Origin: Elusimicrobiota bacterium
GTDB taxonomy: Bacteria; Elusimicrobiota; Elusimicrobia; 2-01-FULL-59-12
DNA: 64,000 bases
Direction: 5' to 3'
Assembly (NCBI GenBank): GCA_041660185.1
Contig: JBAZWU010000004.1
Coordinates: 96,878-160,877, forward strand
The notes beneath the pieces were generated by a model. That model was not told the origin of the DNA. It was given only the letters and a program-made list of their open reading frames with translations, and ran no database searches. Every line of letters begins with the position of its first letter. Within the stretch, counting starts at the first letter, position 1. Positions 15,910-62,813 of this stretch are shown here, one piece after another. Position numbers and translations under genes: made by a program.

Positions 15910-16251
15910 ATGGATATCTTCCTGAGCCATAGTAACCACGCCGACGACTTGCCTCTGATTAATATGCTGTCATTGGCTTTTAAGGTGCTCGGAATCAATC
16001 TCCACGTTGTCGAACGAGCTCCGCGCCCCGGCAAAGCTATCGGAGAGAAGATCGTTCAGACAATGGACGCCTGCGACGAGGTGCTTGTCCTGTATACGAA
16101 TCATGCTCAGGGACGCCAAGATGTTGAGGCTGAAATCGGTTTGGCCAAGGCCAGCAGCAGGCCGGCTCCTCCCGTTTTCATTACGGAATTCCCGGCGAAT
16201 AAGCCAGCTCTCGTTCAGGGCTGTGAGGAGGGGGTGAGGGGACGGGGGTGA
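15910..16251 (+). CDS. standalone TIR-like (DUF1863/TIR_2-like) domain protein, about 113 aa
   Basis: Starts MDIFLSHSNHADD, then LVLYTNHAQ, a pattern typical of TIR-like folds. GGAGGA lies 8 nt upstream of the ATG. The track ORF starts earlier at 15850. Confidence 0.45.
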   Translation: MDIFLSHSNHADDLPLINMLSLAFKVLGINLHVVERAPRPGKAIGEKIVQTMDACDEVLVLYTNHAQGRQDVEAEIGLAKASSRPAPPVFITEFPANKPALVQGCEEGVRGRG

Positions 16252-16268
16252 GGGGACGTAGTTGCAGC
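16230..16268. repeat. REP family 2-like half element with an internal tandem duplication (GGGGGTGAGGGGACG x2, then AGGGGACGTAGTTGC)
   Basis: Matches the left arm of the family 2 elements at 48109, 56246 and 61638. Confidence 0.55.
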
Positions 16269-25586: not shown

Positions 25587-25669
25587 GTCATTCCCGGCGG
25601 TCTCTGGCCGGGAATCCACCGTGCCGTATAACGATGATGGGTCCCCCGCCAGTGGCCGCGGGGGATGAC
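25587..25669. repeat. MITE-like element, family 4
   Basis: GTCATTCCC...GGGGATGAC terminal inverted repeats with two internal hairpins, lying between recO and glyQ. Confidence 0.75.
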
Positions 25670-25704
25670 GACGGAGTGGCAAACGGAGAACTTCTTTAAT
25701 TTCA

Positions 25705-29460: not shown

Positions 29461-29470
29461 CATCAGACAA

Positions 29471-29585
29471 ACCCTCACCCCAACCCTCTCCCTCAGCAGG
29501 GAGAGGGGGGATGATATTTTCTGACGCTCCCTCCCCCTGTTGAGGGGGAGAGCCGGCCTGCCGACCGGCAGGCAGGGGTGAGGGT
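29471..29585. repeat. MITE-like element, family 3, complete copy
   Basis: ACCCTCACCCC... / ...GGGGTGAGGGT terminal inverted repeats with internal hairpins. Confidence 0.75.
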
Positions 29586-32961: not shown

Positions 32962-32976
32962 TTTTACCCTCACCCC

Positions 32977-33066
32977 AGCCCTCCCCCTCCGCAGGGGGAG
33001 GGAGCATCAGATTCTTTACAGCCATCATCCCCTCTCCCTGTTGAGGGAGAGGGTCAGGGTGAGGGT
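32977..33066. repeat. MITE-like element, family 3
   Basis: ACCCTCACCCCAGCCC / GGGTCAGGGTGAGGGT terminal inverted repeats. Confidence 0.75.
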
Positions 33067-33121: not shown

Positions 33122-33153
33122 GTCATCCCCCGCCAGAACCCGCGGGGGATGAC
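33122..33153. repeat. family 4 element, short single-hairpin form (GTCATCCCCCGCC...GCGGGGGATGAC)
   Basis: The same termini as the longer copies enclose one hairpin. Confidence 0.65.
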
Positions 33154-33178
33154 GAGAGGCAGTCGAAAGGAAGTCATC

Positions 33179-36011: not shown

Positions 36012-36021
36012 GATCACTGAC

Positions 36022-36160
36022 GTCATCCCCGAGTGACCCTGTCCCGTCACTTGTCGACGTTCTTGGTGGTCGGGACGGCCCCGACAATGTGACCTCACTA
36101 GAGGACGGGGCTGTCGGGGATCCATCCTTCGATTCCCCGCCAGAGACCGCGGGGAATGAC
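36022..36160. repeat. MITE-like element, family 4, long variant
   Basis: Starts 10 nt after the upstream stop codon. GTCATCCCC / GGGGAATGAC termini. Confidence 0.75.
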
Positions 36161-36284
36161 GATGTTTTTGTTAGGCCCCGGTTGCCAGACACTTGGCGAC
36201 CGGGGCTTTTACACCTTTTTACACTCAATCCTTTCCGTTGACATTTTCGCGATTCGGGGGTAAATAAAATCCGTTGCGAGGATT

Positions 36285-37982
36285 ATGAGACAAAGGCAAA
36301 AGCTCAATAATAGGAAGCTCCCACGCAGACCGCTTGCTCTTTATGGGGTAAGGGGTCTGCTCTCGTTTTATCTGGCCGGTTGTTTGTCGCTGGCGGCCTG
36401 GGCGGCCCCGACGGGGCGTGTGGATGTGCTTCGAGGCCAGGCGGACAAGCGGCTTCCGGGAGTCGTCCAGTGGGAGGCCGTTCAACCCGGAGATAAACTG
36501 GAAGAAGGCACCACCGTCCGCACCGGGGATCAGTCCGAACTCCAGATTCTCACCGGCAGAGGCCATCGTTTTGTCGTTAAGTCCGCAACGCTTTTCGAGC
36601 TTACCAGCCTCCAGGACGACCAGACCAAAGGACGCCTGGAAACAGGCCGGGTTTTGTCCAAAGTCAAACGCCTCCGCGAGAAGGAACAATTTTCTATTCA
36701 AACCCCTGCCGCGGTCTGTGCCGTCCGCGGGACCGAATTTGAGACAGCGGCTGGAGAGCGGGGAACATGGGTATTCGTCTACCGCGGGGTGGTCGGTGTC
36801 ATGGCCTCCGGTGCCGGGGGCGAAACGGCTCTTCGGGCGGGACAAATGACAGCCGTTCACGACGGCACGATCGAATTGCCGCGGCCCATTCCTCAGCAGG
36901 GTCTCTCCGGCAGGGATTCCGCTCTGGCTCGTGACGCCCGGCATGAAGTGGCGCTCGACATGACGCGGAACCAGGTGATTGCCGCGGCCGCCGAGGAACG
37001 GCGCCTGGCCGAGTATCAGGAAGGCAAAAGCATGACCGATGTGGAAGGGAAACGAGTTCGTCTGGAAGAGTACATTGTCCGCTCAGCCCCCAATCAATTT
37101 AAGCTGGTTGTCTTGAACGAACGGGCTCAGTCTCAGCTGGATTACTTCTATTACAAGGGAACCTTTAATAAGGATTTGCCGACGGATCTTTCTGTGGCGC
37201 TGAAAGACCTTTCCGGAAAAATCGGGGCCTCCGCTCCGGAGTATTACCTGACCGCTTATGAAATGGCCCAATCCAACACTCAGGACTCGGTCCATGACAC
37301 CGCGACGGGAGGGCACCTCGTCAAAGTCACCCAGGATGGAGAAGGCAACTATATTCTCAGCGACCCCTCGGACCCCGACAATACTCGCACGATAGAGGCG
37401 GCTGAGCTTCAAACGGATGTGAACAATGAAATTTCTTACAAGATTTATAACCCGCTGACGGACAGCTTCTCTGTTGTTTCGGAAGCTCAGAAGGACGCGT
37501 CAAACCAATTTGGTGTCTATCTCCCGGAGAACGAAACCTACAGAGACCTGGTGCCGGCGGATACGATTTGGAAAACCCGTTTTAATACCTATGAGCATGC
37601 GCTGAATAATGTCGTGAAGATGTCTTATGCCAAGTCTTCCGGGATCACGAATGTGCTCGCCTCCGCTCAAGACGCCAGCTGGACCTATGCCGGCGGGTTT
37701 TATTTCCCCGTGGTCACGACCGTTGCCGGCCAGATCGACTCCATCGTGACCAACTACTACGGCGACGGAACATTTGAGTCTTACCGGACGGTACTCATCG
37801 ACGATAACGGCGCCGTCGCTCCGACCAGCGCGTTCTCCGGCGTATCGACGGGATCCGCCTACCGGGGAGAGCTGCTGAAGTGGAACTATGAACAGCAGGT
37901 TACGGCCAGCGAATTTGAGGGGAGAAAGATTGATCTCGTGGTGGAGCCGAAAATATTCATCAAGAGCGGATTGATTCAATGA
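36285..37982 (+). CDS. FecR-domain secreted protein
   Basis: Signal peptide and a FecR-like region (QWEAVQPGDKLEEGTTVRTGDQSELQI...). Confidence 0.55.
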   Translation: MRQRQKLNNRKLPRRPLALYGVRGLLSFYLAGCLSLAAWAAPTGRVDVLRGQADKRLPGVVQWEAVQPGDKLEEGTTVRTGDQSELQILTGRGHRFVVKSATLFELTSLQDDQTKGRLETGRVLSKVKRLREKEQFSIQTPAAVCAVRGTEFETAAGERGTWVFVYRGVVGVMASGAGGETALRAGQMTAVHDGTIELPRPIPQQGLSGRDSALARDARHEVALDMTRNQVIAAAAEERRLAEYQEGKSMTDVEGKRVRLEEYIVRSAPNQFKLVVLNERAQSQLDYFYYKGTFNKDLPTDLSVALKDLSGKIGASAPEYYLTAYEMAQSNTQDSVHDTATGGHLVKVTQDGEGNYILSDPSDPDNTRTIEAAELQTDVNNEISYKIYNPLTDSFSVVSEAQKDASNQFGVYLPENETYRDLVPADTIWKTRFNTYEHALNNVVKMSYAKSSGITNVLASAQDASWTYAGGFYFPVVTTVAGQIDSIVTNYYGDGTFESYRTVLIDDNGAVAPTSAFSGVSTGSAYRGELLKWNYEQQVTASEFEGRKIDLVVEPKIFIKSGLIQ

Positions 37983-37994
37983 TCAACAGGATTT

Positions 37995-38073
37995 GTAGGG
38001 GCGGACCGCTGTCCGCCCGAATATTGGATTTCATGAGGGTCCTGAGGGCGGGCGCACATCGGTGCGCCCCGAC
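37995..38073. repeat. REP family 1 doublet with a compensated variant stem (GGGCGGAC...GTCCGCCC)
   Basis: Intercistronic, between the FecR-like gene and the beta-barrel gene. Confidence 0.8.
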
Positions 38074-38080
38074 ATTTCTC

Positions 38081-39259
38081 ATGATCATTTCATGTGCCTT
38101 CCCCGTTATGGCGGTTGAGGTGAAACCCGTCGTCAACGCCCAACTTCTGGGCGGCCAGTATTTCTACAACGGTTCAGACAATGCGTTTGGTGCGGTGGCA
38201 TCGCTTTCAGCGGCTCCTTATATGCAGTTTAACGATCGGTGGAGCCTGGTCCCGCTTTACAGCGGTTCCTATAAAGGGACCAAGCAAGTCACCGACCTGG
38301 TGGGCGGGGGAACCCTGTTCCAGGAATCACAGGACCATACCGGCTCGCTCAAAGCCATCCGGTCATTTGCCAATGGCCTCAAGCTCAAGGCGGTGGGCGC
38401 CTATGGCGCGGAATTCCTGCGAGAGACCGTCGACGAAAAGTGGGGGAAGGGTCTTTATGATAACCGCCGCCTTTCGGGTGGAGCAGAGAGCGAGTGGTCC
38501 TGGGATAAAGAACGGTATGTCCGGTTGGCCTATGACTATTACACGATTCGATTTCCAAACTACGCCAGCCTGGAATCCCAGGGATCGTCGATGGGATTAG
38601 GCCGGGAGCTCAATGCCCCCGACGTGCTGGACAATAAGAACCATGCGCTGACTCTTGGAGGCCAGGCCGGCCTTCCCGGCAATGGATTTGCGGAGGCGGC
38701 GTTCAGCCAGACCTGGCGCCGTTTCGGTTCCCAGCACCTCGTGGACCTCTCGGGCGATCTGATTTCCGAGCTTCGCGGCGATCAGATCCAGACCGCTTCT
38801 CTCCAGGGAACCTGGCCCGTTTTACTGGATTCCAATTTGAAACTCTTTACGAGCGTTGGCTACAGCCGGAGCCGTGTTTATTCGAATCAGAACCACTACG
38901 ATGCGCAAAAGGTGGTATTTAACCCCAATTACTATGCCTATATCCAGCAGTCGATCTCAAACCAATGGACCTTGGCGGTCGGCGAGGATCCTTGGACGAT
39001 CGGCTTGAACTGGACGGTGTCCCGTCAAAAATATGCGGACCGGTTGACCCAGGATGCGTTGGGAAATTATGAAACGGGTCGCACGCGTGTCGATGGGGCC
39101 AGTATCGGTTTGCAGTTTGCCTATCCGATTGCGGCGGGGTTCCGGCTAAACGCCTTGACTCAACTGGGGTGGAGCGACTCCAACAATCACAACAACCAGG
39201 TCTATCAGTACCACTACAACACCCAGACCTATTTGATGGGATTCAGCTATGCCTATTAA
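38081..39259 (+). CDS. outer-membrane beta-barrel protein
   Basis: Signal peptide MIISCAFPVMA, C-terminal GFSYAY aromatic terminus. The track start at 37979 translates the REP. Confidence 0.6.
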   Translation: MIISCAFPVMAVEVKPVVNAQLLGGQYFYNGSDNAFGAVASLSAAPYMQFNDRWSLVPLYSGSYKGTKQVTDLVGGGTLFQESQDHTGSLKAIRSFANGLKLKAVGAYGAEFLRETVDEKWGKGLYDNRRLSGGAESEWSWDKERYVRLAYDYYTIRFPNYASLESQGSSMGLGRELNAPDVLDNKNHALTLGGQAGLPGNGFAEAAFSQTWRRFGSQHLVDLSGDLISELRGDQIQTASLQGTWPVLLDSNLKLFTSVGYSRSRVYSNQNHYDAQKVVFNPNYYAYIQQSISNQWTLAVGEDPWTIGLNWTVSRQKYADRLTQDALGNYETGRTRVDGASIGLQFAYPIAAGFRLNALTQLGWSDSNNHNNQVYQYHYNTQTYLMGFSYAY

Positions 39260-45143: not shown

Positions 45144-45176
45144 TCAGGGGAATGGTATCGGCCATCCATCGGATTT

Positions 45177-45240
45177 GTAGGGGCGCACCGCCTGTGCGCC
45201 CGCCATTGGATTGTCCGGGCGGACAGCGGTCCGCCCCTAC
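45177..45240. repeat. REP family 1 doublet
   Basis: Lies between the giant-protein stop and the PorV-like start. Confidence 0.8.
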
Positions 45241-45247
45241 AGTTCTC

Positions 45248-48102: not shown

Positions 48103-48108
48103 GGGCGC

Positions 48109-48139
48109 TAGGGGCTAGGGGACGTAGTTGCCTTGTTGC
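48109..48139. repeat. REP family 2 arm (TAGGGGCTAGGGGACGTAGTTGCC), left flank of the transposase
   Basis: Inverted relative to the arm at 49182-49207. Confidence 0.75.
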
Positions 48140-48178
48140 TTTCCCAGCGAATAAATCCACCCTAAAGCTATCTAAGAA

Positions 48179-49189
48179 GTGATGCCTCGCCAGCCCCGAA
48201 TCGAATCCCCTGGCCTTCTCTGCCACGTCATCGTTCGCGGCATTGAACGCCGCTGCATATTTCCTGCGGCTAACGATTATGGTGATTTCGTTGCGCGTAT
48301 GGCTCGTCTCTTTGGTCAAACCCGGACACCTTGCTTCGCCTGGGCACTCATGCCTAACCATATACATTTGCTTCTCATGATGGGGCTAACCAAGATCTCC
48401 AAGGTCATGCAACGCCTTCTGACCGGGTATGCGGTCAATTTCAATATTCGCTATCAGCGCACCGGGCATCTCTTCCAAAACCGCTATAAATCCATTCTCT
48501 GCAAGGAGGAAACATATTTCTTGAGACTTGTCCGCTACATTCATTTGAACCCCGTTCGGGCCGGACTTGTTAGGACTCCTCAAGACTTAGCTTCTTACCC
48601 TTGGACCGGACACGCCGCTGTTCTGGAAACCCAAAGGAATTCTTGGCAGGATGTGAATGGGGTTTTGGGGCGATTTGGTTCAAACAGAGCCACTGCCATA
48701 GCTGGCTATGAACGGTTCGTCTTGGAAGGGTGGGAGGAACCTCACCGGGATGAACTGGAAGGCGGTGGACTCCTTCGGAGCCTGGGTGGTGTGGGGGGTG
48801 CCTTAGCAGCGGCTCGGGATAACAACCGACAGATGTCAGACGTTCGCGTTTTAGGTGACGGTGACTTTGTCGAAGAAGTACTTCGGCAAGCCGATATCAG
48901 GGATCAAGCGAATAACGGATTCAAGGCCGTTTCGTTGGAGATGCTAATGCAAAAGATCGCAAAAGAGTTCAAAATCGATGCGCGGACGATTCAACTAAAG
49001 CGTCGGGAACGGAAAATTTCCAAGGCAAAGTCCATACTTATATTTGCAGCCGTGGAATGGCTTGGAAAACCATTGAAAGAAATAGCTGCTTTGACAAAAA
49101 TGTCAGCAGGTTGTGCCAGCCGGGCCATGCGCCGCGGTCAGGTGCTGGCGGAACAACTCAGCTTGGCAGCTGGATTCAAAAGGCAATAA
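48179..49189 (+). CDS. REP-associated tyrosine transposase (RAYT; IS200/IS605-like Y1 HUH) fused to a DnaA-C-like HTH domain
   Basis: HUH motif MPNHIHLL, a catalytic-Tyr region (QNRYKS) and the family N-terminus (LCHVIVRG...). The C-terminal KSILIFAAVEWLGKPLKEIAALTKMS resembles DnaA domain IV. The stop codon lies inside the right REP. Confidence 0.8.
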   Translation: MMPRQPRIESPGLLCHVIVRGIERRCIFPAANDYGDFVARMARLFGQTRTPCFAWALMPNHIHLLLMMGLTKISKVMQRLLTGYAVNFNIRYQRTGHLFQNRYKSILCKEETYFLRLVRYIHLNPVRAGLVRTPQDLASYPWTGHAAVLETQRNSWQDVNGVLGRFGSNRATAIAGYERFVLEGWEEPHRDELEGGGLLRSLGGVGGALAAARDNNRQMSDVRVLGDGDFVEEVLRQADIRDQANNGFKAVSLEMLMQKIAKEFKIDARTIQLKRRERKISKAKSILIFAAVEWLGKPLKEIAALTKMSAGCASRAMRRGQVLAEQLSLAAGFKRQ

Positions 49190-49207
49190 GGCAACTACGT
49201 CCCCTAC
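49182..49207. repeat. REP family 2 arm (GGCAATAAGGCAACTACGTCCCCTAC), right flank of the transposase
   Basis: Reverse complement of the left-arm consensus. Confidence 0.75.
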
Positions 49208-49345
49208 GCCCTTCGTTCAAGTTGAGCCCTTCTCCCCAGAAGAAACGCATCTTAAATTCAGCACGATTCAATCATTTTTGTTCAAAATGGCGCCGAGGCG
49301 GTTTTTCCTTGAAAACTTCTCTTTGCGGGGGTAAGGGAGAACACA

Positions 49346-52772: not shown

Positions 52773-55700
52773 TTGCAGAAAATTTCCCGCCTTTTACAAT
52801 TAAGGGCAATGAGTATTTTTGATCCGGCAAACTATACCTTTTCTTGGTACACCATCCCCCACCTGATCAGTGGAGCGTTGTTCATCGTTCTCGGGATCAT
52901 CACACTCGTCAGGGAACGCTTTTCTCTGGTGGCCCTTTCTTTCTTTATCTTAACCTTTGGCGTTGGCACTTGGCAGTTGGGGGATGCCGTGCTTTATTCA
53001 GTCAACAATCCCCATACAGCGCTTCTCGTGTGCCGCGTGGCGCTTTCCGGGACAGTCTTCACCCCCATTGGCGTGTATTTCACAGCGCTGACGATCGCTC
53101 AACAACAACACCGTTACCGGCTGTCGATCTGGATCCACAGCCTTCTGTGTCCCGTCTGGGTATGGCTCTTCACCAATACGGATTTCCTGATAAACAACAC
53201 CTACCATTACTCCTGGGGATACTATTCAAAGTTCTCTAAGTTCATCGTGGTTTTTATCATCTATATGGCGGTCCTGTTCTTCAGGATGTTCCGCATGCTC
53301 TGGGAAGGCCGCCAGCAGGCCGTTCAAGAAAAACAAAAGAAACGCCTGACCGCACTCTTCGTCGCTTTTAGTATCGGTTACATCGGCGTTCTCGACTTTA
53401 TTGCGGGCTTCGGCATCCCGCTTTACACCTTTGGCTGGTTCCCCACCCTGTTGCTCGTCATCCTTTGCACACGGACCATCCGTCTCTACCGGTTGGTCGA
53501 TATCACACCGTCCTTTGCTGTTCACCAGATTATTCGCACCATGGCGGAGTCTCTTCTGATTGTGGACCGTGAAGGGATTATCCGTGTGGCCAACCCCTCT
53601 GCCAGTGCCCTTTTTGGACTGCCGCAGGAACCGCTTGTCGGGGCTCCCTTTCAAAAGATCAGTCAGCAACTGTTATCTTTTCAGGAATTGGAGTCTCTGA
53701 TTCACCGGGGACCGTTACGAGACCGCGAAATTGTGATTCCTTCACCGGATGGCCAGAAGCGCTATCTGAGCGTCTCGGTTTCCATCGTTCAGGATGAGGC
53801 CCACCAGCCCGCGGCTTTCGTCATTCTGGCGAAGGATATCACGGAGCTTGAACGGGCAAAAAAATCCGCCGAAGAAGCCAACCGCGCCAAAAGCACCTTC
53901 CTGGCCACCATGAGCCATGAGATCCGCACGCCCATGAACGCCATTATCGGCATGGCCGGGCTGTTGCTGGACGCTCCGCTGCGTCCGGAGGAGCATGAAT
54001 ATGCCTCGATCGTGCGCAACTCCAGCCATGCGCTGCTGGACATCATCAATGACATTCTCGATTTCTCCAAGATTGAAGCCGGCAAACTGACTTTTGAAAC
54101 GCTGGATTTTGATCTGCATCAGCCGGTTGAAAATGTCGGGGAACTGCTGGCGGCCCGAGCCCAGGAAAAAGATGTTGAACTGGCCACCTTTATTCATCCC
54201 AATGTGCCGACCGCGCTTCGGGGAGATCCCGGCCGGCTGCGCCAGATTCTGATCAATCTGGTGGGCAATGCCATTAAGTTTACGGAGAAAGGCGAGGTGG
54301 TTTTGCGGGTCCGGAAAGAGCAGGAGACCGATCAAGCCGTCACGCTGCGTTTTCTGGTCAGCGACACCGGCATCGGCATCTCGCCGGAAACCCAAAAACG
54401 CCTCTTCCAGTCTTTCACGCAGGCGGACGGCTCCACGACCCGCAAATACGGAGGCACCGGCTTAGGCCTGGCCATCAGCAAGCGACTGACCGAGATGATG
54501 GGCGGACAGATCGGCGTGAACAGCTTCCCCGGGCAAGGGTCGACGTTCTGGTTTACGGCTGTTTTTCAAAAGCAGGCCCAGCCCGCGGCCTCCCCGGCGT
54601 CCTCGCCGGACGTTTTGAAAGATGTCCGGATCCTGCTGGTGGACGATAACTCGACCAACCGCAGGATTTTGCAGGAGCAGTTGGCTCCCTGCGGCGTGAA
54701 AACAGGAGAAGCGGTCAACGGAAAAGAAGCCCTGCGGCTCCTGCAGGAGGCGGGGGCCGCCAGGACTCCTTTTGCCATCGCGATCCTGGACATGCATATG
54801 CCTGAAATGGACGGCCTGGCCCTGGCCCGGGCGATCAAATCGAACCCCGCGCTGGTAGGTGTTCATTTAGTGATGATGTCATCCGTGGGCCATCGCCTGC
54901 CGGAAGCGGCCGGAATCGAGCGCTGGCTGACAAAGCCCGTTAAAAAGGCCGACCTGCTGAACACGCTGGCCGCTGTCTTGACGGGTGAGTCTGGGCCGGA
55001 AAAGGCCTCCCTCGCCCCTCGTTCTTTATCGAGTAAGAGCCGGACCCCCAAGCGCGCCCGCATCCTCCTGGTGGAGGACAACACGTCCAACCAGAAGGTC
55101 GCCCTTCAACTTCTGGGCAAGCTGGGATACAAAGCCGATACCGTCGCCGATGGGAAGGAGGCTTTGGAAGCCCTCGACCGGATCCGTTATGACCTTGTCC
55201 TCATGGACTGCCAGATGCCCGTGATGGACGGGTATCAAGCCACCGCTGAAATTCGCGCCCGCGAAGCCAGCCAGATGCCCGCCAACACTGCCGGCGGGTG
55301 GTCGCCGGAAGTCTGGAGACTGTCTGGCGGGAAACATATCCCCGTAATCGCTTTGACCGCGAACGTTCTGACGGGGGACCGGGAAAAGTGTCTGCATGCG
55401 GGGATGGATGATTACCTGCCCAAGCCCATTGATTTCACTCAGCTGGAGGAGGCATTGGAACGCTGGATTCCTGTCAAGATTTTGCTGGCCGAAGACAACC
55501 TGGCGAATCAGAAGATCACCCTGCACCTGTTGGAAAAAATTGGTTTTCAAGCGGAAACGGTGGCCAATGGGCACGAAGCACTCTCGGCCCTGGCCCGCAC
55601 GTCATATGACCTGGTGCTGATGGACTGTCAGATGCCGGAGATGGACGGCTTCGAAACCACCCGGCAGATCCGGCAAAAAGAAGACACCGCGGATCACCTC

Positions 55701-56249
55701 CCGATCATCGCCCTGACCGCCAGCGATCTGGAAAGCGACAAACAAGCCTGCCTGGCCGCGGGGATGGATGACGGCCTGTCTAAACCCATCAATGAAGCCG
55801 ACCTCCGGCGAGCGTTTGCGCGATGGCTGCCGATGAAGCACCTGGCCGCCGAAACACCTGTGTCTTCGTCTTCTCCTTCGACCCGCAACGATCCGCTGGA
55901 TCTCAAGCGCCTCTACAACTTTACCCGAGGCGACACCGAGATCGTCAAGAAGGTGTTAGGACTTTATCTTCAGGAAACCACCAAACGATTGGGACGGCTG
56001 GAGACAGCCATTCGTGAGGGGGATGCAAAGCAAGTGAGGATGGAAGCCCATGGTTGTTTGGGATCGAGCCTGAACTATGGCGCCACCGGTTTGACCAGTC
56101 CTTTCCGGGAGCTGGAACAAATGGGGGAAAAGGGCCAGTTGGATCGAGCCGCCGAAGTATATGCCGACATTCAAAATGAATTTGAAAAGGTCAAAGTATT
56201 CCTGAAAAGTTATTTCGAGTCCAACGCCTCCGGCCCGCAAAAAGCATAG
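52773..56249 (+). CDS. hybrid sensor histidine kinase: 7TM sensor, PAS, HisKA/HATPase, three receiver domains, C-terminal Hpt
   Basis: H-box [10 protein letters not shown], then N, G1 and G2 boxes. Three D-containing REC domains ([27 protein letters not shown]). An Hpt-like region (EAHGCLGSS). Confidence 0.85.
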
Positions 56250-56339
56250 GGGACGTAGAAAGCATAGGGGACGTAGTTGCCTTATTGCCTTTTGTCGCCA
56301 ATAAGGTAAATAAGGCAATAAGGCAACTACGTCCCCTAT
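56246..56339. repeat. REP family 2, complete inverted pair (ATAGGGGACGTAG...CTACGTCCCCTAT) with a left-arm duplication
   Basis: Lies between the kinase stop and the stop of the minus-strand ATPase gene. Confidence 0.8.
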
Positions 56340-56343
56340 GACC

Positions 56344-57584: not shown

Positions 57585-59645
57585 ATGCCGCGGGAGCCGA
57601 TGTTTGATGCCCATTTTGAGAAGTTCCTTGACTTAATTGATCAGGAACGGAAAGCCGAACAGGCTGAAAACGAGCGCAAGCTGGATTTGCTGCCGGTTCA
57701 GGCGCGTGAGGCGCTGGGCAAGGCCATCACCCGCCTGGTGGTGGTCCGCGAAGACTTCGGCGTCGGAGGGCATCCCTTATGGGTCCTCTCCCGCCCTTCC
57801 GCCGGAGAAGAATACTCCCCGTTCCAGGCGCTGAACCAAGGCGACCTGGTCAATCTCACCTTTGCAGAGAATCCCGAAAACCGGATCAAAGGCACGCTCT
57901 ACGATGTGGATCAATTCGAAGTCACCGTGGCGCTGAACGGCCCGATGCTGGATGAAGCGCCCAAGGGAAAATGTCAGCTCGATATCCTGGGAAGTGAAGC
58001 GACGTACAAGCGGATGAAGAAGGCGCTGAACACGGTGATGAGCGCCGACAAACCGTCTGTGGAACATCTCCGTGATGTTTTAATGGGAAAAGAGAAACCT
58101 TCCTATCAGGGATACGAAAGTATTTTCCCGTCATCCCCGAGTGTCTCTGTCGGGGATCCATCATGCCGTCTGACAGCCTGTCTGGATTCCCCGCCAGTGA
58201 CCGCGGGGAATGACGCAAGAGAAACGACCACAAGAGACGATGGAGGTGCTCCTCGCAATGACATCTCTTTCTTTAACCTCCGCCTGAATCCTTACCAGCG
58301 GGAAGCCGTTGAAAAAGCGCTGGCCGCGCAGGATGTCGCGGTGGTGCATGGCCCCCCCGGCACGGGAAAGACGACCGTCCTCGTGGAGATCGTCCAGCAG
58401 GCGGTGGCCCGCGGCGCGCGTGTGCTGGCTTCGGCCCCGAGCAATATCGCGGTGGATAACCTGCTGGAGAAGCTGCTGGACACCGGCTTACGGGTGGTCC
58501 GGATGGGACATCCGGCGCGCATTCTGGATTCTCTGCGGCATGCCACGCTCTCGGCTCTGGTGACCGAACATGATGATCAGCGCCACATTCAGGAATTGGA
58601 CCAGCAGCGCGAGCGCCTGATCCGCCAGCTCCACCGCGGCCGCGGCATGGAATGGGCGGAGCGAAAGCAGATCCAGCGCGAGATCCAGGCGCTCTGGCAG
58701 GAGGCGCGAGACATCGAGTTCGGCATCGGCAAACAGATCCTGGCGCAGGCGGATGTCGTCCTGGCCACGCACGGCGGCATCGCCAAGCCGATCCTCAAAA
58801 AACCGTTCGATCTCCTGATCATGGATGAAGCGTCCCAGGCCACCGAACCCCTCTCGTGGATTCCCATTCTCCAGGCGAAGAAAGTCATCATCGCCGGCGA
58901 TCCGCTGCAGCTGCCTCCGACGATCTATTCCGAAGAGACCAAAAAACAGGGCCTGGGCGTGACCCTTATGGAGCGCCTCCAGAAAATCCTTCCGCCGGAG
59001 GGGCAGACGCTCTTGCGCATCCAGTACCGGATGCATGAAACCATCATGGGTTTTTCCTCCCGGCAGTTCTATGACGGGAAGCTGGAGGCCGACGACTCGG
59101 TGCGGCGGCACACCGCCTCCGAGATGCCGGATGTGACGACCAACGCGCTGACGCAGAACCCCCTGATGTTCGTGGACACCGCGGGCGCCGGCTACGAAGA
59201 GTCCTGGAATGAACTGCTCGAGAGCCGTGAAAACGAGGGCGAAGCGAAACTCGCGCTCTATTTGTATCAGCAGCTGCGCGAAAGCGGGATCGTAGCCCGG
59301 GCCATGGCGCTGCTCACGCCGTATGTGGCGCAGGCGCGTTTGTTGCGGAACCTCGTCGGCCCTGACCGTTCGATCGAGATCGGCAGCATCGACGGCTTCC
59401 AGGGGCGCGAAAAGGAAGTAGTGATCCTGTCGCTGGTCCGGAGCAACCACCGCGGGGAAGTCGGTTTTCTCGGCGACACGCGGCGCATGAACGTGGGCAT
59501 GACGCGCGCCCGGCGCCTGCTGATCGTCCTAGGGGACTCCACGACCCTGGCCCGGCACCCGTTTTATAACCAGTTCATCGAATACGCCGATGCCCACGAG
59601 GCCCATCATTCCGCCTGGGAATGGATAAACGAAGCGCGGTTTTGA
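57585..59645 (+). CDS. superfamily 1 (Upf1/DNA2/IGHMBP2-like) helicase carrying an in-frame family 4 MITE insertion
   Basis: Motifs LNPYQREAV, GPPGTGKT, DEASQ, GDPLQLPP, QYRMHETI, GFQGREK. Residues SPSVSVGDPSCRLTACLDSPPVTAGND are the translation of the repeat. Confidence 0.8.
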   Translation: MPREPMFDAHFEKFLDLIDQERKAEQAENERKLDLLPVQAREALGKAITRLVVVREDFGVGGHPLWVLSRPSAGEEYSPFQALNQGDLVNLTFAENPENRIKGTLYDVDQFEVTVALNGPMLDEAPKGKCQLDILGSEATYKRMKKALNTVMSADKPSVEHLRDVLMGKEKPSYQGYESIFPSSPSVSVGDPSCRLTACLDSPPVTAGNDARETTTRDDGGAPRNDISFFNLRLNPYQREAVEKALAAQDVAVVHGPPGTGKTTVLVEIVQQAVARGARVLASAPSNIAVDNLLEKLLDTGLRVVRMGHPARILDSLRHATLSALVTEHDDQRHIQELDQQRERLIRQLHRGRGMEWAERKQIQREIQALWQEARDIEFGIGKQILAQADVVLATHGGIAKPILKKPFDLLIMDEASQATEPLSWIPILQAKKVIIAGDPLQLPPTIYSEETKKQGLGVTLMERLQKILPPEGQTLLRIQYRMHETIMGFSSRQFYDGKLEADDSVRRHTASEMPDVTTNALTQNPLMFVDTAGAGYEESWNELLESRENEGEAKLALYLYQQLRESGIVARAMALLTPYVAQARLLRNLVGPDRSIEIGSIDGFQGREKEVVILSLVRSNHRGEVGFLGDTRRMNVGMTRARRLLIVLGDSTTLARHPFYNQFIEYADAHEAHHSAWEWINEARF
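58130..58214. repeat. MITE-like element, family 4, located inside the helicase ORF
   Basis: GTCATCCCC...GGGGAATGAC with the same internal hairpins as the intergenic copies. Only the gene frame is free of stop codons. Confidence 0.8.
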
Positions 59646-59758: not shown

Positions 59759-61099
59759 ATGCCGAAAACATTCATCCTCGACACGAACGTCCTCATCCAC
59801 GATCCGGAAGCTCTATTTACATTTGAAGGCAGTACCGTTGTTATCCCGCTCACGGTTGTTGAAGAGCTGGACGGTTTAAAGCGGGGACACGATACCCGCA
59901 GCCGGAACGCCCGCTCAGTGTCCCGTTACTTGAACGATCTCCGCCAGCACGGCAAGCTGTCCGAAGGAGTTCCGCTCGAACATGGAGGGCGTCTGCGGGT
60001 CGAAGTGGCCGCGCACGCCGCTCTTCCTCCGCTTTTTGCTGATCACTCAAAGGACAACTCCATTTTGGGAACCGCGCTGGCCCTGTCGCAAAAGGGCGAA
60101 AGCGTTGTTTTCATCACCAAGGACATCAACCTGCGCATCAAGGCCGAAGCCATCGGCCTGACCGCCGAAGATTACGAAAAAGAAAAAGTCTCTCCGGACC
60201 AGCTCTACTCCGGGTGGCGGGACCTGCTGGTCCCCTCGTCTCAGATCGATCAATTTTTCAAAACCAAACGCCTGGACCCGCCTCCCTTGAAGCCGGTGCC
60301 GGGATCACCGGACGGCACCGTGGTGAAGTGGATGCCCAATGAAATGGCGATTTTGCACAGCCAGGAGGGGGATTCGCAAAGCGCTTTGGTCCGATACGAC
60401 GCCAAGACCCAGAAAATGCTTCCACTGCTTCATGCCAATGCCAAGCCGTGGGGGCTCAAGCCCCAGAACACCGAGCAGAAGTTCGCGCTGGAGCTTCTCC
60501 TGGATCCCAAGGTGGAGCTGGTATCCCTCGTGGGGGTCCCCGGAGCCGGCAAAACGCTTCTAGCCCTGGCCGCGGCTCTGGAGCAGATCCTGACGGAAAA
60601 AACCTACCGCCGGCTGCTCGTGGCGCGGCCGGTGATCGCGGTCGGGCAGGATATCGGTTTTCTCCCCGGCACGAAAGAAGATAAGCTGGAAAGCTGGATG
60701 GGGGCCATCTACGACAACCTGAATTTCCTCATGGACAATCCCGACAACCCGGGGACGGCTGACGAGGAAGAAGGATCGTTGTTTGAATCCGGCAAGATTG
60801 TGGTGGAAGCGGTAACGTTTATGCGGGGCCGCAGCCTGCCGAACCAGTTCATCATCATCGACGATGCCCAGAACCTGACGCCCCACGAAATGAAGACGGT
60901 CATCTCCCGCGTCGGCCAGGGATCCAAGATCGTGGTGACCGGAGATCCCTATCAGATCGACAATCCCTACCTGGATTCGGCGTCCACGGGGCTGGCGAAC
61001 CTGGTTGAAAAATTCAAAGGCCAGCTCGTTTACGGCCACATGACCTTCTCGAAGATTGAGCGCAGCACGCTGGCGGCGCTGGCCTCCGATTTGTTGTAG
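59759..61099 (+). CDS. PIN-domain–PhoH-like ATPase (YlaK/PhoH2-type)
   Basis: N-terminal PIN (ILDTNVLIHD...), Walker A GVPGAGKTLLA, a PhoH C-terminal region. The stop codon TAG is the GTAG of the downstream REP. Confidence 0.8.
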   Translation: MPKTFILDTNVLIHDPEALFTFEGSTVVIPLTVVEELDGLKRGHDTRSRNARSVSRYLNDLRQHGKLSEGVPLEHGGRLRVEVAAHAALPPLFADHSKDNSILGTALALSQKGESVVFITKDINLRIKAEAIGLTAEDYEKEKVSPDQLYSGWRDLLVPSSQIDQFFKTKRLDPPPLKPVPGSPDGTVVKWMPNEMAILHSQEGDSQSALVRYDAKTQKMLPLLHANAKPWGLKPQNTEQKFALELLLDPKVELVSLVGVPGAGKTLLALAAALEQILTEKTYRRLLVARPVIAVGQDIGFLPGTKEDKLESWMGAIYDNLNFLMDNPDNPGTADEEEGSLFESGKIVVEAVTFMRGRSLPNQFIIIDDAQNLTPHEMKTVISRVGQGSKIVVTGDPYQIDNPYLDSASTGLANLVEKFKGQLVYGHMTFSKIERSTLAALASDLL

Positions 61100-61211
61100 G
61101 GGCGCACCGCTGTGCGCCCGCCCATCCAATTCAGTGTGAATACCCTAACATCATTCTGCTCCGATGTTTTCATCTAACGTCTTGATCGGGCGCACAGCGG
61201 TGCGCCCCTAC
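61096..61211. repeat. REP family 1 doublet (68-bp spacer)
   Basis: GTAGGGGCGCACCGCTGTGCGCCC ... GGGCGCACAGCGGTGCGCCCCTAC. Confidence 0.85.
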
Positions 61212-62663
61212 ATTCTCACGTTGATCGTCCTGGGAATCGGCACCTTCCTCCGCTTCCATGCCCTGGACCGTCAAAGCCTCTGGGACGATGAGATGTCCAC
61301 GCTCCAGACGATCTCAACCCCTCGGAGTGAGTTGATTCATCGTTTCCAGACCTACGAAATCCACCCGCCGCTGTATTTCTTTCAGATGAAGCTCTGGCAA
61401 AAAGCCGGGGCACGCTCGCTGGTCAATTTCCGCGCCAACTCGGCTTGCTGGGGCACGCTGTCCCTGCTTTTGATCTTCCTTCTGGGGCGCCGTTACGGCG
61501 GGCCCTGGGCCGGTTTGTGGGCGAGCGCCTATGCGGCTTTTTCACCCTATCACTTGTCCTACAGCCAGGAAATCCGTCCGTATGCGTTGGCCATCGTGAT
61601 CGCGTTGGCTGCGCTGTTAGTCTTGGAACAAGTGGTTATAGGGGACGTAGTTGCCTTTTTGCCTTATTGGCGAAAAAAAACAATAAGGCAAAAAGGCAAC
61701 TACGTCCCCTATGTTCCCTATGTTTCTTTATGGGTGATCCTTACGATCCTCTGGACCGCCCAGTTTTTCACGCATTACTGGGGCGCCTTTGTAGTATCCG
61801 CGCAAGCCCTCTATGCCTGGACGCGGCTGCTGGAGCGCCCGGCACGGATGCGGCTCCTCCGATCCGTGCTGATCGCGGGGGGATTGTTCTGCCTCTGGCT
61901 ACCGATTCTGTTGGCCCAGATGGAGGTTGTTCCAGCGCTGTCTTTCTGGGTGCCTCGCTTTTCATTCGCCAGTCTTTTGCAAACGTTCGGGGCGTTCAGC
62001 GGAATCTACTTTAATATGGCCTCCAGCACGTTTTACCTGCCCACGGTTACCGGCATTTTTGCTCTGCTGGCGCTGGCGCACGGCTTGGCGCTCGTGCACG
62101 GGCTTCGCCGCGGTCCCTCCGCGTTACGGTACTGGCTGTGTGTCGGACTGGCGATTCCCTGCCTGATCAGTCTCTGGAAACCAGCCATTTTTCTCTGGTA
62201 CCGCTACACGTTCCATCTGTACCCGGCTTTTTGCCTCCTGTTGGTTCTGGGGGCCTTGCGATGGCGGCCGCGCGCTCTGGGGATTCTGCTGCTCGCCACC
62301 TGCCTGGGGACGCAACTCTGGGGAAGCGCGATCTATTTTACCCGGTGGCAGAAGGCCAACCCGAAAGCGGTTGTTTCCTATATCCACTGGCTCCGGCAGC
62401 CGGAATCGATCGTGGTCCGGCCTTTTTACTTTGCCAGGCTTTTTCAGTTTTATGACCAGGGGACCCTTCCGGTCATCGACCAGCACCTGCTGGACAGCGT
62501 GGAGAAGCGCGCGGCGCTGAAGGGGAAGAAGATCATCCTGGTCGCTTTTAATGTCCCGTATGACCCGGTGACGGACGCCCTGCTCAGTGAATTTAAGGTG
62601 GTCTCCGCGCAAAATTTCCCGGGCCTGGCGCGTCTGGGGATCACCGTCTATCAGCTGGAATAG
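61164..62663 (+). CDS. GT39/GT83-like (ArnT/PMT-type) membrane glycosyltransferase-family protein carrying an in-frame REP family 2 insertion
   Basis: Multi-TM protein with an N-terminal DDE-type loop (RQSLWDDEMSTLQ). The track start at 61164 translates the REP1, so the true start is probably near 61216. The repeat element sits at 61638-61712. Confidence 0.6.
   Translation: MFSSNVLIGRTAVRPYILTLIVLGIGTFLRFHALDRQSLWDDEMSTLQTISTPRSELIHRFQTYEIHPPLYFFQMKLWQKAGARSLVNFRANSACWGTLSLLLIFLLGRRYGGPWAGLWASAYAAFSPYHLSYSQEIRPYALAIVIALAALLVLEQVVIGDVVAFLPYWRKKTIRQKGNYVPYVPYVSLWVILTILWTAQFFTHYWGAFVVSAQALYAWTRLLERPARMRLLRSVLIAGGLFCLWLPILLAQMEVVPALSFWVPRFSFASLLQTFGAFSGIYFNMASSTFYLPTVTGIFALLALAHGLALVHGLRRGPSALRYWLCVGLAIPCLISLWKPAIFLWYRYTFHLYPAFCLLLVLGALRWRPRALGILLLATCLGTQLWGSAIYFTRWQKANPKAVVSYIHWLRQPESIVVRPFYFARLFQFYDQGTLPVIDQHLLDSVEKRAALKGKKIILVAFNVPYDPVTDALLSEFKVVSAQNFPGLARLGITVYQLE
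61638..61712. repeat. REP family 2 complete inverted pair inside the GT39-like ORF (75 bp)
   Basis: ATAGGGGACGTAGTTGCCTTTTTGCC...GGCAACTACGTCCCCTAT. It is translated as VIGDVVAFLPYWRKKTIRQKGNYVPYV. Confidence 0.8.
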
Positions 62664-62708: not shown

Positions 62709-62804
62709 GTCATCCCCGGTCGTCACCCCCGAATGTCTCTGTCGGGGGTCTAAGCAGCCGTTACGTCAGGAGTAGATTCCCCGCCAACGACCGCGGGGAA
62801 TGAC
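62709..62804. repeat. MITE-like element, family 4
   Basis: Its right terminus GGGGAATGACAGAGG supplies the Shine-Dalgarno 5 nt before the ATG of the next gene. Confidence 0.75.
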
Positions 62805-62813
62805 AGAGGAAAA

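Follow-up and report, generated by a model that had tools for sequence, protein, structure and literature searches.

The gene described here and the two inverted repeats that enclose it most probably constitute a TIRtron, a reading to which a probability of about 0.72 is assigned. A probably single-copy gene of the TIRYT type, whose product is of the TnpA_REP subclass 2.1.2 type with a helix-turn-helix (HTH) resembling DnaA domain IV, is situated between cognate terminal inverted repeats (TIRs, here called arms) of 27–33 nt, and gene-less dimers of these arms would represent derivatives of the unit. It is an ordinary member of an already described type of element. The analysis covers the whole 64-kb stretch of DNA, referred to as the window, and the positions of all features are given in Table 1.

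Table 1. Features of the gene, its arms and the dispersed arm copies, in positions of the window.
Feature	Position	Strand	Detail	Basis
Left terminal inverted repeat (arm)	48110..48142	+		inverted-repeat pair, locus comparison
Left arm core	48116-48142	+	TAGGGGACGTAGTTGCCTTgTTGCtTT	sequence
TIRYT-type gene (probable)	48182..49189	+	335 aa plus stop	ORF call, homologue starts
HUH/Y1 nuclease domain	48182..48706	+	aa 1 to ~175	Pfam, conservation, AlphaFold2, Foldseek
HUH motif	48356-48367	+	N59-H60-I-H62	invariant in homologues
Linker region	48707..48928	+	aa 176 to ~249	invariant columns, pLDDT
C-terminal DnaA-domain-IV-like helix-turn-helix	48929..49186	+	aa ~250-335	Pfam, profile, Foldseek
Right terminal inverted repeat (arm)	49180..49212	-		inverted-repeat pair, homologue ORF ends
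Solo partly degenerate arm	16228..16268	+	GAGGGGACGTAGTTGCAgc	arm census
Gene-less arm dimer	56263..56340	.	29-nt perfect arms, 20-nt loop
Gene-less arm dimer	61638..61712	.	32-nt perfect arms, 11-nt loop

The open reading frame offers two candidate starts, 48179 and 48182. Every homologue has MPR... as its N-terminus, and the real start is therefore the ATG at 48182, which shortens the protein to 335 residues from the 336 of an earlier note on this DNA, the open reading frame itself being confirmed. In the public record the protein is listed as GenBank MFA5975518.1, 'MAG: transposase [Elusimicrobiota bacterium]', and in IMG it carries the name 'REP element-mobilizing transposase RayT'. PADLOC returned no match for it.

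The N-terminal part of the protein is an HUH/Y1 nuclease domain. Pfam Y1_Tnp (PF01797), the profile proposed as a check in the earlier note, matches residues 13–121 with 36.5 bits, well over the cut-off of 23. The HUH motif NHIHLL (residues 59–64, nt 48356–48373) and the catalytic Tyr119 within RYIHLNP (nt 48536–48538) are intact; the motif and the region of the Tyr had been recognized beforehand. His60, His62 and Tyr119 are unchanged in each of 84 homologues, and catalysis is therefore regarded as being under selection. The AlphaFold2 model has a mean pLDDT of 86.6 overall, with block means of 88–98 for residues 11–190. Compared with the PDB by sequence alone, the protein had no match, whereas searches with the family profile and with the predicted fold did. 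The top fold match found by Foldseek is the E. coli TnpA_REP (4er8_A, E 2.5e-6; TM 0.72 normalised to the target over 163 columns), which agrees with the earlier assignment to a RAYT-related lineage of HUH/Y1 enzymes; 2xma and 2vjv are also among the fold matches of the predicted nuclease domain. The likeness to E. coli TnpA_REP (RAYT, YafM; 4ER8, PMC3479197) thus comprises the predicted fold of the catalytic domain and the HUH and Tyr chemistry. However, the E. coli enzyme has 165 residues, lacks an HTH and is only 21% identical in sequence to the present protein, and the matched solved transposase chains of the IS200/IS605 group likewise cover about 125–152 residues, compared with 335 here.

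The nuclease domain is followed by a linker of low predicted order (block-mean pLDDT 54–76 for residues 191–250), which nevertheless contains two invariant motifs, L192, G194-G195-G196-L197-x-R199-S200-x-G202 and D220-x-R222-x-L224-G225...F229-V230. By eye, the second of these resembles the ...GRPLG..F... stretch near the C-termini of published TIRYTs. The C-terminal region had been proposed to resemble DnaA domain IV, and three lines of comparison bear this out. Bac_DnaA_C (PF08299), suggested as a second check, matches residues 253–304 over 53 of 69 profile positions with E 2.9e-6, but its score of 27.6 bits stays under the gathering cut-off of 31.5; the profile matches 50 of the 84 homologues. 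The family profile finds DnaA 2z4r in the PDB (E 2.6e-6, residues 253–325), and Foldseek aligns the model with DnaA domain IV 1j1v_A at a TM of 0.69 normalised to the target and an rmsd of 2.2 Å over 77 columns. The last ~80 residues hence share both fold and detectable sequence similarity with DnaA domain IV (PF08299; 1J1V, 2Z4R), although here the tail sits on a nuclease and not on an AAA+ initiator. Since the fold resemblance is real, the tail probably acts as an HTH of the DnaA-IV type without being DnaA. A DnaA-box-like 9-mer (TTATNCACA) was looked for by eye in the arms and not found.

The two arms flanking the gene are 33 nt long, 88% complementary and 1037 nt apart. In the core of the left arm, an outer conserved box, (T)AGGGGACG, is followed after 3 nt by two direct TTGCYTT heptamers, and the arm ends about 40 nt upstream of the ATG; the arm motif is TAGGGGACGTAGTTGCCTT and the heptamer stretch within it TTGCCTTaTTGCCTT. 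A short tandem duplication, GCTAGGG/GCTAGGGG, marks the outer edge of the left arm (48105–48120). The right arm overlaps the final codons (..K R Q) and the TAA stop (49187–49189), just as the earlier note had placed the stop codon inside the right repeat. In several homologues the open reading frame continues through the right arm and ends in ...GN(Y/S/N)VP*, the translation of GGCAACTACGTCCCCTAx. Folded as single-stranded DNA, the individual arms are no more stable than shuffled sequences (z +0.41 and +0.76), and a hairpin forms only from two arms together. Accordingly, the gene is bracketed by inverted repeats as had been claimed, but these are not REPs in the strict sense, as no arm has a stem-loop of its own. 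In a simple sigma-70 scan, the stretch from the left arm to the ATG contained no promoter-like site and the gene itself two, and an Rfam search of the whole window gave no match at gathering score. By eye, a leader sequence, TGAATAAAT, appears to be conserved in the window and at the homologous loci L078, L079 and L097.

Comparison of ten loci (the window, L073, L078, L079, L080, L081, L090, L097, L099 and L100) revealed the same arm-gene-arm layout in homologues showing 44–60% protein identity, namely at L073, L078, L080, L081, L090, L097 and L100. Among the other variants, L079 has an upstream dimer only and L099 a left arm without a clear right arm, and at L081 whole dimers lie on both sides of the gene, at distances of 67 and 112 nt. 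Eight arm pairs flank a gene. In seven of them the left arm stops 30–45 nt short of the ATG, and in seven the right arm reaches or overlaps the end of the open reading frame; counted over the ten loci, each feature is present in eight. All arms share the outer box (G)GGGACG, while their inner part is lineage-specific and usually consists of two tandem 7–8-mers, and both arms of a given gene change together. At L073, where the protein is 59% identical and the gene context is different, the arms are 93–96% identical to those of the window, compared with 67–74% for the coding DNA. At L078 (protein 60% identical), GTAG is replaced by GCTG in both arms. Across the orthologous arms this position reads GCTG, GTAT, GTAC, GGAG, GGGG or GGTC, so the proposal that GTAG is a conserved REP tag had to be abandoned; the conserved box is GGGGACG. 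G-T wobble pairs in the arms were also considered as a means of distinguishing recognition of single-stranded hairpins from that of double-stranded TIRs. In the window arms, each of the two mismatches is a G-T pair when read on the top strand; L078, L090 and L097 lack such a pattern, and with no consistent bias on either strand the comparison was uninformative.

The arms are also dispersed without the gene. Allowing up to 2 mismatches, the window contains seven copies of the 15-mer GGGGACGTAGTTGCC, compared with 0.16 expected, and none of 100 shuffles reached seven. These seven arms lie at four places. Apart from the gene itself, copies are located at 16252 (1 mismatch), 56267(+)/56322(-) and 61641(+)/61695(-), with a partial extra copy at 56247, close to the positions 16230, 56246 and 61638 given for the dispersed repeat in the earlier note. 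The first dimer sits between the stops of two convergent open reading frames (56249 and 56344) and folds as single-stranded DNA with -35.3 kcal/mol (z -10.0). The adjacent partial copy of an outer arm (56247–56258) belongs to a tandem duplication of AAAGCATAGGGGACGTAG (two copies) and provides the TAG stop of the upstream open reading frame. The second dimer, 75 nt or 25 codons long, is in frame and stop-free within a GT39 glycosyltransferase gene (61164–62663), has a predicted folding energy of -38.4 kcal/mol (z -13.0) and is bordered on the right by a tandem GTCCCCTAT/GTTCCCTAT. It falls in a protein loop missing from the homologues P0124, P0125 and P0127; as this loop varies in length, the exact borders of the insertion are not readable from the homologues. 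The solo arm is preceded by a tandem duplication of GGGGGTGAGGGGAC (two copies), and no partner arm was found near it. Neither dimer has a T-run, and in the region scanned for terminator-like sites neither was picked up. Derivation of the dimer loops from the gene leader (GCGAAnAAA) was considered and dropped, since a match at 9 of 16 positions is too weak. The window also contains another repeat family, GTAGGGGCGCACCGCTGTGCGCCC, consisting of genuine GTAG-plus-hairpin REPs.

Outside the window the arm family was traced by word scans. In a genome collection that does not contain the source genome, a 17-mer from the arm gave 68 single matches in unrelated taxa, about the number of chance occurrences calculated (~70, from 596 Gb x 2 strands / 4^17). 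Among metagenome contigs, a 19-mer was found on seven, two of which are pieces of the window itself; of the remaining five, L072 and L073 represent one homologous locus, and L071, L075 and L077 carry single arms. L071, from the same metagenome, holds one further copy; the single arm of L077 lies in GC-rich coding DNA and could be coincidental. At L100 an extra arm lies 9.9 kb away from the gene. Many short contigs were seen to end inside arms.

The distribution of the unit bears on whether it is an autonomous insertion sequence (IS), in which case the arm-gene-arm unit would transpose as a whole, with the dimers as its MITEs and a gene that is not domesticated. The unit is found in unrelated gene contexts (window, L073, L078, L081, L090, L097 and L100), the topology of the dimers is exactly that of a unit from which the gene has been deleted, and L080 carries a tandem partial second copy. 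However, these differing contexts come from genomes whose proteins are 44–60% identical and hence demonstrate no recent movement, and three proteins found in exact form on 9, 8 and 11 contigs each occur in a single context wherever neighbour genes are visible. Plasmid carriage and duplicates within a replicon have been described as marks of true ISs (Bertels et al., PMC5581495). Here, the 64-kb window holds one whole copy of the gene, only 24 of 72,556 plasmids gave weak matches and none a close one, and 2.9 million viral contigs yielded one truncated match. The unit also differs from IS200/IS605 elements, which occur as multiple near-identical copies and have subterminal hairpins but no TIRs, in that the window contains no second whole copy and the ends are inverted repeats. 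Movement of the whole unit is thus considered unlikely.

Still less likely is a domesticated protein that binds or processes the arms without mobilising them, the arms at the gene being operator-like sites of autoregulation by the HTH and the hairpins old relics or host elements, e.g. transcript-end structures. The position of the arms relative to the ATG and the end of the open reading frame in most loci would suit such a role, as would the dimer placed exactly between convergent stop codons and the auto-inhibited, weakly active state of E. coli TnpA_REP (PMC3479197). It is at odds, however, with the invariance of the HUH motif and the Tyr in all 84 homologues, with the perfect dimer arms of 29 and 32 nt, which suggest recent copying or strong constraint, and with the in-frame copy in a coding gene, which is easier to understand as an insertion than as a host function; moreover, the dimers do not have the T-runs of terminator-like sites.

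As regards its class, the protein is much closer to the TIRYTs than to the RAYTs. Reference sequences of TIRYTs and RAYTs were rebuilt from Additional file 5 of Di Nocera 2013 (PMC3733652). In BLASTP most of the published TIRYTs are 32–37% identical to the protein (E 1e-24 to 3e-28, best 2.5e-28) over residues 1–144 or more, whereas RAYTs reach 21–27% (E 2e-4 to 3e-11) over residues 51–140 only. The HUH motif stands in the context ...LMxNHxH... in TIRYTs as well as in the present protein, while RAYTs have ...PD/EHxH... (alignment judged by eye). REP_Tyr_transpos is the top match in NCBIfam, yet its 63.7 bits remain below the RAYT equivalog cut-off of 80. Of the earlier 'REPtron/RAYT' label, the affiliation with a RAYT-related lineage can therefore be retained, but not membership of the classical class (Nunvar 2010; Ton-Hoang 2012; NCBIfam NF047646): the score is too low, the TIRYTs are nearer and the arms are not REPs. 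A classical REPtron, in which a RAYT/TnpA_REP would act on true REPs of GTAG plus palindrome as in E. coli, is largely refuted and very improbable, for although the model is most similar in fold to E. coli TnpA_REP in complex with a REP, database names and profiles point to RayT, the letters GTAG are present in the arm and true REPs of another family occur in the same window, the profile score and identities given above, the replacement of GTAG in orthologous arms that keep GGGGACG, the missing stem-loops and ~160 residues in excess of classical RAYTs all speak against it.

The locus corresponds to the TIRtrons of Di Nocera, De Gregorio and Rocco (2013, BMC Genomics 14:522, PMC3733652), as described in the parts of that work that were available, in several respects. 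The HUH/Y1 protein is RAYT-related but longer, long non-palindromic inverted repeats with a G-rich box enclose the gene, one TIR overlaps the 3' end of the open reading frame (their '3'ov'), and TIRs are moderately abundant also as singles and dimers. The motif GGGGWSAS is present in many, but not all, published TIRs; the arm core GGGGACGT agrees with it at 6 of 8 positions, differing at positions 7 and 8. TIRYTs in the published alignment have 216–238 residues and a basic GRP-rich tail, whereas the present protein is ~100 residues longer and ends in the DnaA-IV-like HTH. Moreover, the host is represented by a MAG of the Elusimicrobiota, a phylum not seen named in these parts of the paper, nor was a two-part arm of conserved box and lineage-specific tandem 7–8-mers found spelled out in them.

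The additional C-terminal domain has its counterpart in TnpA_REP subclass 2.1.2 (Quentin et al. 2018, BMC Genomics 19:475, PMC6006769), whose members have a Bac_DnaA_C-like C-terminal extension and which the authors equate with the TIRYTs. These proteins, like the present one, are among the longest Y1 proteins, and the TIR box is unlike a DnaA box in both cases. However, automatic and manual searches in that study revealed no REP-like sequences beside subclass 2.1 genes, whereas the arms of the present locus are scattered in the form of hairpin dimers.

Organization of the locus also recalls the REP systems. As in the E. coli REPtron (PMC3479197, PMC8266576), a chromosomal gene with single-copy behaviour is bracketed by its presumed target repeats, but the E. 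coli substrates are ~35-nt imperfect palindromes after GTAG (PMC8266576) and the arms are non-palindromic. REPIN-RAYT systems (Bertels and Rainey 2011, PMC3116915; Bertels et al. 2017, PMC5581495) share the inverted doublet that folds into a long hairpin, the apparently single-copy enzyme gene flanked by repeats and the common topology of doublets and gene unit. In a REPIN, however, each half is itself a REP palindrome, which the arm is not, and judged by its sequence the protein is unlikely to belong to the REPIN-associated RAYT groups 2 and 3.

Within the TIRtron reading, the enzyme is the obvious candidate for acting on its own arm family, in line with the earlier suggestion that it serves one of the dispersed repeat families. 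From what is probably a single gene copy, it likely acts in trans on the hairpin dimers and moves them as single-stranded DNA. The dimers would be non-autonomous derivatives of the arm-gene-arm unit, because they display the same topology with the gene missing, and when single-stranded, e.g. on the lagging-strand template, they would form long hairpins with perfect stems. On such hairpins the HUH domain may nick and rejoin DNA at the GGGGACG foot or directly beside it, in the way that TnpA_REP and the IS200/IS605 enzymes process their own hairpins. Family specificity could be provided by the HTH tail through binding of the tandem heptamers in the stem, a link that is drawn from about seven lineages and is confounded by their relatedness. 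Since the left arm lies only ~40 nt before the ATG, the same contact may also autoregulate the gene. We infer the cleavage, the strand used and the target of the HTH from these comparisons, and the inverted symmetry of the arms and their joint changes are as compatible with recognition of double-stranded TIRs as with that of single-stranded hairpins.

More tentatively, the arms might constitute an address of two modules, which could be re-addressed by exchange of HTH and heptamers throughout a very large enzyme family; this extension is considered possible but doubtful. The HUH domain would nick and rejoin at a universal GGGGACG box located at the hairpin foot, and the DnaA-IV-like HTH, which evolves fast, would read the lineage-specific tandem 7–8-mers of the stem. 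The borders of the tandem duplications at arm ends lie within or just after GGGGACGTAG, and the presence of such short duplications at many arm ends could reflect footprints of nicking and rejoining. Hairpins of 75 nt could in this manner be placed in frame inside genes.

The importance of the locus is modest, as its type has already been described and public annotation already names the protein a transposase or RayT. The family is large, with at least 7,900 clusters at 90% identity matching the full protein and 813 clusters at 50% identity matching the C-terminal half alone, yet it is known from computational work alone: a literature search on TIRYTs retrieved only studies of this kind and no biochemical test of any TIRYT. 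Here, the label of the locus is refined from REPtron to TIRtron, and the anatomy common to the ten loci would provide a good substrate design for a first biochemical test of a TIRYT. The DnaA-tailed subclass, for which Quentin et al. observed no nearby repeats, has cognate dispersed repeats in this lineage of the Elusimicrobiota.

A transposase-like ORF, the only long one in the region, indeed lies between the inverted arms on the + strand, with coordinates slightly corrected from those first assigned. Since all 84 aligned homologues (84/84) begin with MPR(Q/K)xR, the start was placed at the ATG at 48182, giving a product of 335 aa and not of 336 aa as claimed in the earlier note. The protein matches the Pfam model Y1_Tnp with 36.5 bits (cut-off 23; aa 13-121), as do all 84 homologues, in which the HUH motif (N59-H60-I-H62) and the catalytic Tyr119 of RYIHLNP are invariant. 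At the level of sequence, the catalytic residues are thereby shown to be intact and under selection. Bac_DnaA_C is matched by aa 253-304 (27.6 bits, E 2.9e-6, below the cut-off of 31.5) and by 50 of the 84 homologues, and the family profile matches Thermotoga DnaA (2z4r; E 2.6e-6, aa 253-325). An AlphaFold2 model of aa 1-335 built on the 84 homologues (mean pLDDT 86.6) displays a well-ordered N-terminal domain (11-190), a poorly ordered stretch (191-250) in which the motifs GGGLxRSxG and DxRxLG...FV are invariant, and a C-terminal domain of ordered helices. The top Foldseek match in the PDB is E. coli TnpA_REP on REP (4er8_A; E 2.5e-6, target-normalised TM 0.72, 163 columns), followed by the ISDra2, IS608 and IS200 transposases, and the tail aligns with DnaA domain IV on DNA (1j1v_A; target-normalised TM 0.69, rmsd 2.2 Å, 77 columns). 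The predicted fold is thus TnpA_REP-like with a DnaA-IV-like C-terminal HTH; the tail suggested in the earlier note stands on these matches, with its Pfam score short of the threshold.

The best NCBIfam match is the equivalog model for RAYT (REP-associated tyrosine transposase, TnpA_REP), at 63.7 bits below its cut-off of 80. Public records list the protein as 'MAG: transposase [Elusimicrobiota bacterium]' (MFA5975518.1) and, in IMG, as 'REP element-mobilizing transposase RayT', and place it on a contig of 165,634 bp. The family comprises at least 7,949 members at E ≤ 0.001, counted among 8,000 scored candidates, nearly all of about 335 aa; named members among the matches listed are called 'transposase' or 'RayT' and come from Elusimicrobiota, Deltaproteobacteria and Smithella. 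The C-terminal half by itself yields 813 cluster representatives at 50% identity.

Di Nocera et al. 2013 (PMC3733652) describe RAYT-like genes with long terminal inverted repeats (TIRs) in place of REPs, and coin the terms TIRYT (TIR-associated tyrosine transposase) for the genes and TIRtron for the units. The TIRs share the motif GGGGWSAS, overlap the gene ends and form moderately abundant families of singles and dimers. According to Quentin et al. 2018 (PMC6006769), TIRYTs are equated with TnpA_REP subclass 2.1, of which subgroup 2.1.2 has a C-terminal region resembling Bac_DnaA_C; the TIR box is considered unlike a DnaA box, and REP-like sequences were not found near subclass 2.1 genes. When the window protein was compared by BLASTP with a set rebuilt from Additional file 5 of Di Nocera et al., most TIRYTs showed 32-37% identity over aa 1-144 or longer (E down to 2.5e-28), and RAYTs 21-27%, restricted to aa 51-140 (E 2e-4 for E. 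coli b228). Based on these reports and on the BLASTP comparison, the unit is assigned as a DnaA-tail TIRtron and not as a classical REPtron, which corrects the REPtron label of the earlier note.

Positions of the TIRtron, of related repeats and of the homologous loci compared (window positions unless a locus is named; protein identities are to the window protein)
Feature	Position	Details
Transposase-like ORF (+)	48179/48182..49189	
Gene-flanking arm pair	48110-48142 / 49180-49212	inverted; 33 nt, 88% complementary, 1037 nt apart
Further arm 15-mer sites (window scan)	~16252; 56267/56322; 61641/61695	solo; pair; pair
Gene-less dimer	56263-56340	perfect hairpin, 29-nt arms, 20-nt loop; -35.3 kcal/mol, z -10.0 as single-stranded DNA
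Gene-less dimer	61638-61712	perfect hairpin, 32-nt arms, 11-nt loop; -38.4 kcal/mol, z -13.0 as single-stranded DNA
GT39 glycosyltransferase gene (+)	61164-62663	MFA5975527.1
1158-aa ORF (+)	52773-56249	TAG stop 56247-56249
Arm-end tandem duplications	16228-16255; 48105-48120; 56241-56276; 61704-61724	
Arm-end tandem duplications, other loci	L071 (rc) ~520-560; L099 9919-9950; L073 ~286-305	
Leader with TGAATAAA(T)	48140-48181	also in L078, L079, L097 leaders
Repeat family (T)GTAGGGGCGCACCGCTGTGCGCCC	219-335; 15205-15257; 37982-38085; 45151-45244; 61095-61215	GTAG, then short GC-rich palindrome
Third palindromic family CGTCATCCCCCGCGGnnnCTGGCGGGGGAT and variants	7254-7293; 25584-25679; 33124-33163; 36021-36170; 58123-58224; 62721-62814	both orientations
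Fourth repeat family ACCCTCACCCCnACCCTCCCCCTCnnCAGGGGGAGGG	7974-8071; 29457-29556; 32952-33066	second palindrome adjoining
~190-nt element	14094-14290; ~5020-5200	two intergenic copies, ~88% identical
Additional inverted repeat	14306-14508	beside ~190-nt element
Locus L073		protein 59% identical; neighbouring genes differ
Locus L078		60%; TAGGGGACGCTGTTGCCTT..., GTAG -> GCTG in both arms
Locus L079		58%; window-type arm dimer immediately upstream of gene; contig stops shortly past stop codon
Locus L080		46%; arm GGGACGGAGGCAACTAATCA
L080 gene and tandem partial copy	L080 9940-11929	JADJIN010000001.1; second right arm 11910-11929
Locus L081		44-45%; GAGGGGACGTATTTCGGTAATTCGGTT; full dimer either side of gene, 67 and 112 nt from ATG
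Locus L090		46%; arm GGGGACGTACTTCAAAATATCAAT
Locus L097		49%; arm GAGGGGACGGGGCTTAGTTTCTTAGTTT
Locus L099		46%; left arm with GGGGACG box
L099 HipA/HTH pairs	L099 1-1230; 11036-12638	
Locus L100		45%; arm GGGACGGTCTTTAGATAATAAGATAT

Each arm consists of an outer G-rich box, three bases and two direct heptamers (TAGGGGACG-TAG-TTGCCTT-n-TTGCCTT). The arm 15-mer given in the earlier note occurs seven times in the window at up to two mismatches (0.16 expected; no shuffle reached seven), in agreement with the dispersal first described, and the last codons and TAA stop of the ORF lie inside the right arm, as also read before. Since the gene-flanking arms folded singly are no better than shuffles (z +0.41 and +0.76), a single arm is not a palindrome and structure needs two arms. 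The topology of the gene-less dimers is that of the arm-gene-arm unit minus the gene.

One dimer, 75 nt long, sits in frame and stop-free within the GT39 gene and encodes 25 aa (IGDVVAFLPYWRKKTIRQKGNYVPY) in a loop after ...LALE, which is missing in the homologues P0124, P0125 and P0127. This is explained best by insertion, with a loop length that varies among homologues and hides the exact borders. Two further GT39 homologues (P0123 and P0128) carry different inserts at the loop (VGAGHRPRPQ...GRHGGLPLQ), resembling translated repeats of another family, and this loop is possibly a hot spot tolerant of repeat insertion. In the 1158-aa ORF the TAG stop comes from a partial extra arm copy, so that the arm repeat defines the end of its host ORF. 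Many arm ends bear short tandem duplications of a few flanking bases and the outer arm end (e.g. AAAGCATAGGGGACGTAG x2 and GGGGGTGAGGGGAC x2), with inner borders within or directly past GGGGACGTAG; such duplications may have been left by nicking and rejoining, or else by slipped repair.

Inverted repeats flanking the gene were sought in the surrounding DNA of nine homologues. In the window and in seven of these nine loci, 30-45 nt separate the left arm from the ATG; the two others are L081, where complete dimers flank the gene, and L079, where a dimer lies upstream. The right arm overlaps the ORF end in the window and in six loci (L073, L078, L080, L090, L097 and L100); in L081 the flanking dimer starts 8 nt past the stop codon, the L079 contig is too short there to reveal any right arm, and the search at L099 gave no clear right arm. 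Several homologues end in ...GN(Y/S/N)VP before the stop, which is arm sequence translated. Between L073 and the window the arms are 93-96% identical, the coding DNA only 67-74%. Arm conservation lies far above that of the enclosed gene and both arms of a gene vary in concert, which shows that these are functional sites linked to the protein. Conserved among the loci is the box (G)GGGACG, and the inner part is lineage-specific, mostly two tandem 7-8-mers. GTAG, which the earlier note places in the 5' ends of the REP motif, is not kept and is replaced in other loci.

At L080, from an Elusimicrobia MAG, a partial second copy lies in tandem downstream of the TIRYT gene: leader and first codons recur, ahead of a 123-aa ORF and a second right arm. 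At L099, a HipA/HTH toxin-antitoxin pair adjoins the TIRYT homologue and a second pair lies about 10 kb away, accompanied by a 104-aa Y1_Tnp fragment and an IS110 transposase; the region looks like a zone of local duplication or rearrangement. Several homologues share TGAATAAA(T) 25-35 nt upstream of the ATG and CTAAGrr immediately before it, which may represent an extended -10 element and a ribosome-binding site; a simple sigma-70 scan made no call at this leader.

Other repeats accompany the TIRtron in the window. Copies of the second, classical-looking REP family, (T)GTAGGGGCGCACCGCTGTGCGCCC, often form REPIN-like inverted pairs 39-66 nt apart and share the TAGGGG start of the TIRtron arm; a cognate Y1 gene for this family was not found in the window. 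The ~190-nt element folds as a single long hairpin (RNA fold -125.5 kcal/mol, z -8.6) and matches no Rfam family, the only hit being asX3 (E 0.57), far under the gathering score.

TnpA_REP and IS200/IS605 enzymes bind folded single-stranded hairpins and cut adjacent to them (PMC3479197, PMC8266576). Cognate arms in the TIRtrons combine a conserved box with variable tandem repeats, and the gene-less dimers fold as long single-stranded hairpins. By analogy to these enzymes, we infer that the TIRYT would act in trans on dimers as single-stranded hairpins and would cut the base of the stem at GGGGACG or close by, with the HTH binding the tandem heptamers of the stem and so setting the repeat family recognised. 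The enzyme may also regulate its own gene by binding to the left arm, whose end lies about 40 nt upstream of the ATG. Alternatively, the arms may be recognised as ordinary double-stranded TIRs; the data fail to separate the two modes.

Exact copies of three homologous proteins occur on 9, 8 and 11 contigs from different samples, in one and the same context at every contig showing neighbouring genes, and a search of the window for a second gene copy found none. Among plasmids 24 of 72,556 matched, all at ≤38% identity and only one spanning most of the query, and among 2.9 million viral contigs a single fragment. With one context, a single copy in the window and few plasmid and viral matches, the gene behaves as a single-copy, vertically kept RAYT-like gene, as described by Bertels et al. 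(PMC5581495), and not as an insertion sequence. The arms, unlike the gene, are repeated: L100 has an additional arm 9.9 kb away from the gene, L071, a contig from the metagenome that yielded the window, holds one further copy, and many short contigs break off within an arm, as is usual for assemblies that reach a repeat. An autonomous IS with MITEs is possible, but opposed by the copy-number evidence. Invariant catalytic residues and perfect dimers make an immobile, purely regulatory relic unlikely. The classical REPtron is largely refuted by the sub-threshold RAYT score, unfolded lone arms, unconserved GTAG and greater similarity of the protein to TIRYTs than to RAYTs.

The feature described in the earlier note is real and was mostly read correctly, with its family label and the GTAG idea in need of correction. 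This kind of element is already known, and public records already call the protein a transposase. The literature search on TIRYTs, in the texts available, returned computational work and no experimental study of the enzymes. The main use of the DnaA-tail TIRtron described here would be the design of clean substrates for a first biochemical test of a TIRYT.
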